Shown here: positions 50,805-52,357 of the stretch, in pieces
Layout of the letters: every line of letters starts with the position of its first letter
How positions within the stretch are numbered: the stretch's first letter is position 1
Assembly: GCA_965216875.1 (NCBI GenBank)
Contig: OZ244207.1
Span: 7,680,001 to 7,744,000, forward strand
DNA: 64,000 nucleotides
From: Rubripirellula sp.
GTDB taxonomy: Bacteria; Planctomycetota; Planctomycetia; Pirellulales; Pirellulaceae
Direction: 5' to 3'
Notes under the pieces: generated by a model
Told to the model about the DNA's origin: nothing
The model's database searches: none
The model's input: the letters and a program-made list of their open reading frames with translations, nothing else
Position numbers and translations under genes: made by a program

Positions 50805-50928
50805 AAAAAAGCCACGTGATCAATGATGATGATCACGTGGCATCGTTGGATGATTCCGATCGCCGCCACAACCGGGCTCTAGAAAAGGCTGTGACAGCGA
50901 CGTTGATTGAATCCCACAGATTCGATCA
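50805..50928 (-). ncRNA. Putative sRNA unit A (about 125 nt, 3-4 hairpins ending in an intrinsic terminator)
   Basis: Terminator GCCACGTGATCA-loop-TGATCACGTGGC-TTTTTT; 13-bp stem with G-U pairs only on the minus strand; TTGCAT-N17-TAGCAT promoter at 50963-50935. Confidence 0.5.
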
Positions 50929-50978
50929 GCCCTGATGCTATTGTCGGGGCGGAAGCAATGCAAACGAAAAAGTGCAAA

Positions 50979-51018
50979 GAGAATAGAGCCGCCCGAACAT
51001 CCTGCTCGTGCGGCTCTA
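50979..51018 (-). terminator. Hairpin with CAGGAUG apex followed by UUCUCUUU
   Basis: Perfect TAGAGCCGC/GCGGCTCTA stem with inner CGA/TCG and CA/TG pairs. Confidence 0.45.
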
Positions 51019-51063
51019 AGCGTTAACGCAAGACTAACGTCCTTCTCTGCCCAAGTCGGTTCG

Positions 51064-51339
51064 TTAGAACGGTCTATTGGAGCCGAATATCGCGTCCACG
51101 TTGAGAGATGTTTTTTGGGAAAGCGTTGGTCTCGCGATGAACGTTTTCGGCATTGCGCGGTCTTCTATTGGGCGTGCCTTTCGCCTTTGCGAAGCATCTT
51201 TCCAGTGAGCGAGTTTGCGGTGGTCAAATCGGCACAGTTTTGGGTCCAGCCCTTCAGCGGAATGCATAAAGATTTCTGGCTCGGGCTCGGCAATGCGAAC
51301 GAGCGATTCAAGAAACAACCGCATCTCTGCGGACCGCAA
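51064..51339 (-). CDS. Possible small hypothetical protein
   Basis: 91-aa ORF ending just before the 50979-51018 hairpin; no recognisable motif. Confidence 0.25.
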   Translation of the reverse strand: MRSAEMRLFLESLVRIAEPEPEIFMHSAEGLDPKLCRFDHRKLAHWKDASQRRKARPIEDRAMPKTFIARPTLSQKTSLNVDAIFGSNRPF

Positions 51340-51558
51340 AGGTCGCGAAATGAAGGTGCCACAACCGTCACCAAAGCGCGCGAAGACCGCTGCATTCGCG
51401 GCGTTAGGAAAGAGGAGACGAAGGCATCAGAACGCAGCGTTCTTCGGTGAATCGCTACACCGTTTCTTTAAGTGCCACTCGCGTTTTTGACGGTCGATAG
51501 CTTGATGTCGCGGACGTTGTTGATCGCTGTCGCGACCGTCGCTCGGGTCACGCGCGCA

Positions 51559-51690
51559 TAAAAAAGCACTTGGCGCGGGGTTAGTAACACCAAGTGCTGG
51601 GATGCGACACATTCCACATCCACTTGGATTCTATGAGGATGGAGAGCAGCAGCCACTGGGGATGATTTTTTCTATCGACGTGAACGTTTT
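51559..51690 (-). ncRNA. Putative sRNA unit C
   Basis: Terminator AGCACTTGGTG-loop-CGCCAAGTGCT-TTTTT; upstream CAATAGCGT resembles the unit A -10 context CAATAGCAT; shares AATCATCC with unit A. Confidence 0.35.
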
Positions 51691-51778
51691 TAACGCTATT
51701 GATGCCGCGCTAGTCAAAACAATCCACTGTGCGAACGCCACGAGCCAAGTGTGAAGATTGAGTTAAGGGCGTGTCATC

Positions 51779-51945
51779 AAAAGAAAAGCCGCCCAGGTGA
51801 AGTAGGGCTAACACCTGAGCGGCAGAGCAACGATGGGAATGGGCTACCCATCGGCATCAGTGGATGAATGAGGAAGTGAAAAGCCGCCGGGATGTTTGTG
51901 CGCCGCATCCCGGCGACCTACACAACACAGGCACAACTGGGCAGT
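51779..51945 (-). ncRNA. Putative sRNA units D/E
   Basis: Hairpins GCCGCTCAGGTG/CACCTGGGCGGC+TTTTCTTTT, CGATGGG/CCCATCG and CGCCGGGATG/CATCCCGGCG+GCTTTT; two loops contain TAGCCC. Confidence 0.45.
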
Positions 51946-52046
51946 CATGCCATCTCGCTTTCAGAGGTCGACTTTTTCCGATCGTGAAATCGATGAAGAC
52001 TCTGCGAACGAGTGATAACGTCCTGAAACTTCTCGTTTGCGAAACA

Positions 52047-52184
52047 TAAAAGTCCGCCCAGATGCACTAAGGGCACAGGCATCTGAGCGGACGGTATGGG
52101 AGACCGCACAGGCAATAGCAGCATCCCACTGTTTGCCCAGACGCAGGGTGCAACGCTAGGCAAACATGCTGGTACCAAACAGCA
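52047..52184 (-). ncRNA. Putative sRNA unit F (4 hairpins, sigma28-like promoter)
   Basis: Terminator GTCCGCTCAGATGC/GCATCTGGGCGGAC+TTTT homologous to the unit D stem; TGTTTGCCTAG/CTGGGCAAACA stem; GCCGATAA at 52198-52191. Confidence 0.5.
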
Positions 52185-52357
52185 CTGTGCTTATCGGCAC
52201 ACATGATCGATGAACTGCATGAGAGTTTGATCGGCGCGCACTTAATCTGAGTTGGCCCAAAGCGAAAACGTAACGGAGTCAACTTAACCAATCGGTTGCT
52301 TGGTCGAGGGCAAGCGGTCGGTGACCCTTCCGTTTGACTCAAGCCGAACTTCAGACG

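Follow-up and report, generated by a model that had tools for sequence, protein, structure and literature searches.

What occupies an intergenic gap of about 1.6 kb (positions 50744-52357) that carries hairpin after hairpin of terminator type, all facing the same way? The gap lies in the window analysed here, a 64-kb stretch of the Rubripirellula sp. genome (G000:C1:7680001-7744000; the genome is a single contig of 8.26 Mb with 56% G+C), and is flanked by a DUF1501 gene on the plus strand and a methyltransferase-like gene on the minus strand. An initial annotation of the letters alone had read it as a tandem array of putative small non-coding RNAs (sRNAs). We consider it rather probable that the gap is a head-to-tail minus-strand array of lineage-specific predicted sRNA genes, each independently terminated; support for an sRNA gene is good for units A and B, moderate for C and D, and weak for E. 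Listed in the direction of minus-strand transcription, the parts of the array are:

52043-52218, minus strand: unit B, a predicted sRNA gene, about 160-175 nt long, whose conserved hairpins number three besides the terminator
51878-52045, minus strand: unit D, a predicted sRNA of about 165 nt with a moderate fold (z score -2.5 on both strands)
51776-51877, minus strand: unit C, a short predicted sRNA (about 100 nt) that has a 5' stretch free of G, a single hairpin and a terminator (z score of the minimum free energy, MFE, -5.1)
51558-51775, minus strand: unit E, a terminator and an upstream stretch without significant fold (z score -1.1), with a relaxed promoter match from 51722
50977-51557, minus strand: stretch F, 581 nt (z score -0.9), ending in a hairpin (50984-51018) without a clean U-tract
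50800-50976, minus strand: unit A, a predicted sRNA gene that has a candidate promoter and a perfect 12-bp terminator, together with two hairpins and a single-stranded linker, all of them conserved

Unit sizes lie between about 100 and 220 nt, against the 120-140 nt first proposed. Nor are the units six siblings of one another; for A and B, the true siblings are found elsewhere in the genome.

We scanned for intrinsic terminators, defined as hairpins that close directly on at least four T, and found five canonical ones in the gap, all on the minus strand, with energies of -16.1 to -28.7 kcal/mol. The same custom scan of 50000-53000 detected no plus-strand terminator inside the gap. Together with a sixth hairpin, they are:

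52052-52092, minus strand: terminator hairpin of B, -28.7 kcal/mol, T-run 52051-52048
51883-51917, minus strand: terminator hairpin of D, -22.2 kcal/mol, T-run 51882-51879, a stem type found at three genomic loci
51788-51823, minus strand: terminator hairpin of C, -23.2 kcal/mol, T-run from 51787, a stem type found at eight genomic loci
51566-51597, minus strand: terminator hairpin of E, -16.1 kcal/mol, T-run from 51565
50984-51018, minus strand: sixth hairpin, 15 bp, in a 54-nt fold of -26.8 kcal/mol (z score -4.5, equalled by 0 of 200 shuffles)
50811-50841, minus strand: terminator hairpin of A, -20.9 kcal/mol, T-run 50810-50805, a stem type found at seven genomic loci

All six hairpins that had been listed as minus-strand terminators are in place, but only five are canonical: the sixth is a real hairpin and a borderline terminator, because its tail is an interrupted U-rich run with no clean U-tract. 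The terminator of A has a perfect 12-bp stem and lies 68 nt past the stop codon of the convergent DUF1501 gene. The terminator stems of B and C are homologous (51784-51823 and 52049-52090), as the initial annotation had stated, and are the only such pair within the array. When the six stems were read by eye, five proved to have, on the minus strand, a single G·U pair and not one A·C pair.

A scan of the whole genome returned 695 terminator sites (324 on the plus strand and 371 on the minus strand), against which the gap stands out as the densest same-strand cluster in 8.26 Mb. It is the sole place with four same-strand sites at gaps of at most 700 nt, and the sole five-member single-strand cluster at gaps of at most 1000 nt. 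In a crude classification against long open reading frames (ORFs), 444 sites fell inside ORFs, 114 lay at most 150 nt after a same-strand ORF, 42 lay at 151-400 nt, and 95 were orphans, including four of the five gap terminators. The 114 sites close behind same-strand ORFs indicate that intrinsic termination is in use in this organism. A second, simpler scan of 50000-53000 gave 7 terminator-like sites, compared with 3.8 +/- 1.7 in shuffled sequence; its loop limit of 8 nt causes it to miss four of the five gap terminators. We also considered high-copy repeats, whether repetitive extragenic palindromes, which the initial annotation had named as a possible refutation, or miniature inverted-repeat transposable elements. 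These are ruled out by copy number, since the stem types occur at only eight, seven and three loci, and whole units occur three times with 76-91% identity.

The strongest evidence comes from units A and B, each of which belongs to a family of three copies in this genome. BLAST of the gap against its own genome placed paralogues of A at G000 2939517-2939692 (-) and 6126142-6126322 (-), and nhmmer recovered exactly three copies with E values of at most 2.6e-53, the next match being at 2.7e-4. The window copy matches the covariance model of the family with 191.5 bits, and its fold has a z score of -6.5. The consensus consists of two hairpins and the terminator, with 104 of 110 pair cells paired (94.5%), five pairs changed on both sides, and a covariation score reached in 6 of 500 shuffles. 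The unit also has a candidate sigma-70-type promoter:

50935-50963, minus strand: candidate promoter of A, TTGCAT, 17 nt, TAGCAT

The promoter-like boxes are present in all three copies, 17-18 nt apart: the -35 box is kept at 6 of 6 positions, and the -10 box reads TAGCAT or TACGAT. The spacer, by contrast, has diverged. To judge such a match, we used a relaxed pattern, TTGNNN-N16-18-TANNNT, within at most 90 nt upstream of transfer RNA (tRNA) transcription units. It matched upstream of 11 of 55 units, compared with 1.4 +/- 1.1 in shuffles (4 at most) and a match rate of about 1% in random 90-mers of the genome, indicating that the organism uses sigma-70-like promoters and that the match at unit A is meaningful. 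With the third position of the -35 box free to be C as well, the sense strand of the gap had just two matches, one at A and one within E, at 51722. The position of the boxes would put the start of A near 50928 and the length of its RNA at about 120 nt. Nothing follows A on its own strand in the window, where the next gene is the convergent DUF1501 gene.

Unit B has paralogues at G000 5600165-5600346 (+) and 2944220-2944400 (-), by the same BLAST search. Again nhmmer recovered exactly three copies, with E values of at most 2e-53 and the next match at 0.078, and the covariance model match is 162 bits. The fold has an MFE of -81.2 (z score -7.5), compared with -59.9 for the antisense strand. The consensus has three hairpins and the terminator, with 161 of 166 pair cells paired (97.0%), three pairs changed on both sides, and a covariation score reached in 11 of 500 shuffles. 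A 5' block of 43 nt is nearly invariant across the three copies. In the terminator loop, the word GTGCCCTT is kept in all three copies while the distal stem varies, and GUGCCCUU is better conserved than the distal stem around it. We examined the 5' block for a coding signal, as all four differences fall in one codon phase and three of them are synonymous in an antisense frame (read by eye); this was dropped because indels break the frame in the other copies and the changes fit the sense-strand fold.

The initial annotation had proposed selection at the RNA level on the minus strand, and for A and B the folds bear this out. In all six copies, the sense strand folds more stably than the antisense strand, by 3-21 kcal/mol. 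When the pairing partners were slid along the alignments, only 26-47% of pairs remained, compared with 94.5% for A and 97.0% for B. Across both family alignments there are 42 G·U cells and a single A·C cell; the same helices read on the other strand are only 81% paired. Some loops are better kept than their stems. We conclude that both units are families of three copies whose conserved folds of several hairpins work on the minus strand alone; judged by their sequences, A and B are likely to be small regulatory RNA genes.

The remaining units are less well supported. The 3' half of C, including the terminator stem that resembles that of B, is homologous to modules in four other gene-poor islands of the genome. 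The 5' end of D (15 nt) and its 3' end (a GU-rich stretch and the terminator) are common to units at G000 5600513-5600661 and about 1014660-1014800, and its middle is not conserved. Taken together, C and D have end modules in common with units of at least eight further islands of this kind. No significant BLAST match for E was found in the genome, and E is the weakest sRNA candidate. Stretch F has no paralogue in the same search and no conserved ORF. The sequence words reported earlier are all present in the window, but they carry less than was hoped. TGCCTGTG occurs five times in the 64 kb, compared with 2.0 +/- 1.46 expected; 6 of 100 shuffles reach five, three of the five occurrences lie within 189 nt of gap sequence, and the word is not kept in the paralogues of B. 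The C:G ratio of unpaired runs is 2.95, compared with 2.59 +/- 0.45 in dinucleotide shuffles, so that C-rich loops lose their force as an argument for G-rich targets. TTCGCAAAC, which stands behind several island terminators and at the start of unit D, was rejected as a promoter box because its flanks are without information; it occurs 266 times in the genome, with about 52 expected from base composition. Pairing of the GU-rich stretch of D with a CA-rich loop of A-like units was also rejected: the complement is 10 nt long, and the duplex with the window copy of D is only about one standard deviation better than shuffles.

Several results weigh against reading the gap as sRNA genes, and most concern the reach of the families. 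BLAST of the array found nothing in 40 other genomes. The B covariance model found nothing in 149 family genomes under stricter filters, nor in two same-genus genomes at E values up to 0.1. With the A model, 14 of 39 other genomes, none of them same-genus, had matches, which scored 17.6-30.6 bits over 57-162 nt; these were not inspected singly, and we take them for hairpin-level matches. Four exact pattern scans in IUPAC code of genome and metagenome collections returned nothing, and in two same-genus genomes no terminator array lies beside the orthologue of the methyltransferase-like gene; these genomes are distant, with a neighbouring protein 54-57% identical. The conserved, covarying homologues that had been looked for therefore exist as paralogues inside this genome, but none is credible in the other species searched. 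Covariation in A and B is supportive rather than proof, because each family has three related sequences and the structures were derived from these. A stricter promoter scan of 50000-53000 gave no match, and among the units only A has a convincing promoter; for B, there are weak matches that do not align between copies, and for C and D nothing convincing. The B copy at 5600165 has its hairpin with no T-run behind it, and the folds of E and F are not beyond chance (z scores -1.1 and -0.9). Among the 18 sequencing runs listed, no run that contains the stretch is recorded as RNA, and four further runs with the same species label, presumed to be RNA, covered 0 of 14 kb. Searches against Rfam 15 gave no match in the window at the gathering threshold (30 bits for the best sub-threshold match, where the gathering score is 59; E 0.1) and only three tRNAs in the other islands, in agreement with the initial annotation, which had recognised no named RNA family.

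The copies of A and B led to a wider network. An all-against-all comparison revealed at least nine gene-poor islands that share pieces as a mosaic. Besides the window array there are eight, with same-strand orphan terminators and mosaic pieces in common with it:

G000 2938507-2940596: gene-poor island
G000 2944175-2944740: gene-poor island
G000 5599262-5600687: gene-poor island
G000 5601237-5602634: gene-poor island
G000 5918923-5920289: gene-poor island
G000 6125454-6126442: gene-poor island
G000 1012529-1015131: gene-poor island
G000 2680221-2681350: gene-poor island

Four islands are linked by a common element, about 480 nt long and about 70% identical between them. Two islands match each other at 88-90% identity over about 1.1 kb and adjoin paralogous genes for 182-aa ankyrin-repeat proteins. 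This mosaic invites the explanation that survives best after our own, namely that the islands are relics: duplicated and shuffled intergenic DNA whose terminator hairpins persist because they ended genes in the past or still end them, with no regulatory RNA function. The long match beside the ankyrin genes does point to segmental duplication, and the confinement of the families to one genome among those searched, the mosaic of common pieces and the chance-level folds of E and F all agree with it. What the relic explanation does not account for is the behaviour of A and B, which keep three or four hairpins up to the terminator at 76-83% identity to their paralogues. All one-sided changes in them go through G·U on one strand, and eight changes are two-sided; the loops and the promoter boxes of A are kept better than the stems and the spacer. 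Neutral DNA so diverged would not remain 95-97% paired, and we consider it unlikely that the array consists of relics.

The absence of a terminator between the stop codon of the methyltransferase-like gene (52358) and unit B, and of a confident promoter for B, C or D, would fit one long transcript, in which the gap is the 3' untranslated region (UTR) of that gene (52358-53452) and the hairpins are attenuators, or processing or stability elements that yield 3'-UTR-derived fragments. Five strong canonical terminators in series, however, would halt nearly all read-through, and A carries its own conserved promoter-like boxes. The contexts of the copies argue in the same direction. Copies of A and B are found behind a beta-lactamase-like gene, behind an opposite-strand hybrid histidine kinase gene, beside a divergent peptidase gene and beside a divergent thioredoxin gene; for B at 2944220-2944400 and 5600165-5600346 and for A at 6126142-6126322 the 5' neighbour is divergent or the context unrelated, with no same-strand gene on the 5' side. 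The units are therefore not 3' UTRs or leaders of one conserved gene. Same-genus orthologues of the methyltransferase-like gene also have no such tail, and we regard a single long 3' UTR as improbable.

Could the hairpins instead terminate small protein-coding genes, or the units be type I toxin-antitoxin loci of the Ibs/Sib kind? Short ORFs are many in the gap. The longest encodes 171 aa on the plus strand (50935-51450), and a minus-strand ORF of 91 aa (51064-51339) ends 46 nt before the sixth hairpin and has G+C contents of 0.57, 0.45 and 0.57 at the three codon positions, weakly resembling real genes. None is convincing, as had been noted at the outset, and none is conserved in 50744-52357. 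No ORF of at least 12 codons on either strand is common to the copies, since position, length and frame are not kept and one-base indels break the frames, and the stop-to-stop frames of the islands match each other in all six frames on both strands. Pfam returned no family for the three gap ORFs tested, and the genome contains no paralogue of the eight gap ORFs searched. The 171-aa ORF had matches in 0 of 200 family genomes, the 91-aa ORF in 5 of 200 with per-genome E values of only 0.0017-0.009, and its 86-aa form matched nothing within 47-151 aa in 5.8 billion protein clusters. The hairpins are not terminators of conserved small ORFs. For toxin loci, a tiny antisense frame of 10-13 codons is common to the three A copies (by eye), but it is too short for a membrane toxin, and its substitutions are mixed, two synonymous and four not; with no conserved small hydrophobic ORF on either strand and similarity in all frames, an Ibs/Sib-like arrangement was rejected. 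We consider small proteins, toxins included, a very improbable explanation of the hairpins.

Equally improbable is a role of the predicted RNAs as protein sponges for CsrA paralogues after the manner of CsrB, RsmY and RsmZ, which sequester CsrA through many GGA motifs in hairpin loops: the genome does hold seven CsrA-family genes above the Pfam cut-off (PF02599; for example 2979902-2980057 and 2770056-2770211), only one of them beside FliW, and GUGGGAU is present in both A and B, but the units contain 0-3 GGA each, of which 0 of 10 are unpaired in the minimum-energy folds of the five window units and 1 of 8 in four paralogues, and one A copy has lost both GGA triplets. The protein-sponge idea of the initial annotation fails here as far as CsrA is concerned.

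As a CsrA-sponge design is not seen, we favour trans-acting base pairing through conserved unpaired segments as the mode of action of the predicted sRNAs. Each unit would be transcribed from its own promoter, recognisable only for A, into an RNA of about 100-170 nt that acts in trans. The pairing surfaces of B may be its 5' block and the loops ACCCUG, UUGCCUG and GUGCCCUU, and those of A the loop CUAGAGCCC and the linker. Neither Hfq nor ProQ was found in the genome, and action would proceed without them. Duplication, and the exchange of end modules between some nine gene-poor islands of this genome, would have given rise to the families. The gene for FliW (2769421-2769762) adjoins only the CsrA gene at 2770056, which leaves six CsrA genes without a known antagonist. 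A bolder extension, which we put forward tentatively and think possible rather than probable, is a private system independent of Hfq and ProQ, in which some two dozen heavily folded sRNA genes in about nine islands duplicate and swap promoter, seed-hairpin and terminator modules, and in which some may serve the six FliW-less CsrA paralogues.

The genes around the gap have domains typical of planctomycetes:

44051-49171, plus strand: PSCyt1/PSCyt2/PSD1 protein of 1706 aa, by domain matches
49265-50743, plus strand: DUF1501 protein, by a domain match
52358-53452, minus strand: methyltransferase-like frame of 364 aa, with a weak methyltransferase match and a resemblance to class I methyltransferases
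53420-54787, plus strand: TPR-SIR2 gene

The PSCyt/PSD1-DUF1501 pair has no canonical plus-strand terminator of its own inside the gap; its transcript would enter the perfectly palindromic terminator of unit A and run antisense to the array (49265-50841). The 364-aa frame probably has a later true start, at the Met of MGLIQANARLL, because same-genus orthologues align only from residue 52-57 on. An in-frame TGA in these orthologues proved to be merely their stop codon. DNA sequencing runs show that a near-identical strain retains the gap stretch with eight true differences, none in units A, B or C and six in F and the 60-nt tail, too few for use.

Elsewhere in the genome, an intergenic tandem repeat (G000:C1:4588111-4588607) has 3.9 copies with a period of 127 nt, which is not a multiple of three, at 97% matches. 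Rfam has no counterpart for this repeat, which may represent a further structured-RNA array or a satellite. Aragorn predicted 99 tRNA genes, including one tRNA-SeC and one called 'Pyl' by the program. An unusual concentration of tRNAs lies on the minus strand at about 591000-657000, several of them behind short tandem repeats.

Regulatory RNAs of Planctomycetes are nearly unexplored, and our literature search found no work on planctomycete sRNAs. Table 1 of a 2022 review counts 8 distinct annotated sRNAs for the whole Planctomycetes-Verrucomicrobia-Chlamydiae (PVC) group, compared with 345 for Proteobacteria (PMC9029176), and a table of a 2010 motif survey gives one motif, 'Rhodopirellula-1', without an Rfam accession (PMC2864571). 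If transcribed, A and B would be sRNA genes open to concrete tests, in an organism that has neither Hfq nor ProQ, and the island network would show new sRNAs arising from reused modules. Should the private riboregulatory system prove true, Planctomycetes would have their first defined sRNA families in these, and modular sRNA evolution a natural example.

We compared the array with known multicopy RNA systems. LhrC1-5 of Listeria and RsaE/RoxS are Firmicutes sRNAs whose C-rich loops pair with Shine-Dalgarno regions. Like them, the predicted units are multicopy and partly tandem, carry pyrimidine-rich words in hairpin and terminator loops, and would have no strict need for Hfq; unlike them, their loops are not C-rich beyond shuffles, and no UCCC-type motif is common to all units. 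With CsrB, RsmY and RsmZ the predicted sRNAs share structured, terminator-ended, multicopy units, in a genome unusually rich in CsrA (seven genes), but they do not have the repeated GGA in hairpin loops that defines those sponges. The Sib/Ibs loci of E. coli are likewise multicopy, partly tandem intergenic units of about 140-170 nt with terminators; the array differs in having no conserved hydrophobic small ORF on either strand.

The closest known arrangement, by analogy and as described in the review PMC4211561, is that of PrrF1/PrrF2 of Pseudomonas, OmrA/OmrB of E. coli and AbcR1/AbcR2 of Rhizobiales, which that paper groups with the csRNAs of Streptococcus as sibling sRNAs lying in tandem, at distal sites, or both. 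As in the cases described there, the short non-coding units of the array would follow one another in the same orientation within an intergenic gap, each ended by an intrinsic terminator of its own, and have further copies at distal sites, with copies about 65-90% identical, consistent with duplication followed by relocation. Unit D and its relatives, with common 5' and 3' ends and a divergent middle, resemble OmrA/OmrB in the account of PMC4211561. The array differs from the sibling sRNAs of that account in having no sequence or Rfam relationship to them, and in mixing different families rather than copies of one. Its predicted RNAs are also longer and far more folded, with three to four hairpins, and belong to a genome without Hfq or ProQ. 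Tandem and sibling sRNA genes are already a well-known kind, to which this array adds a predicted case.

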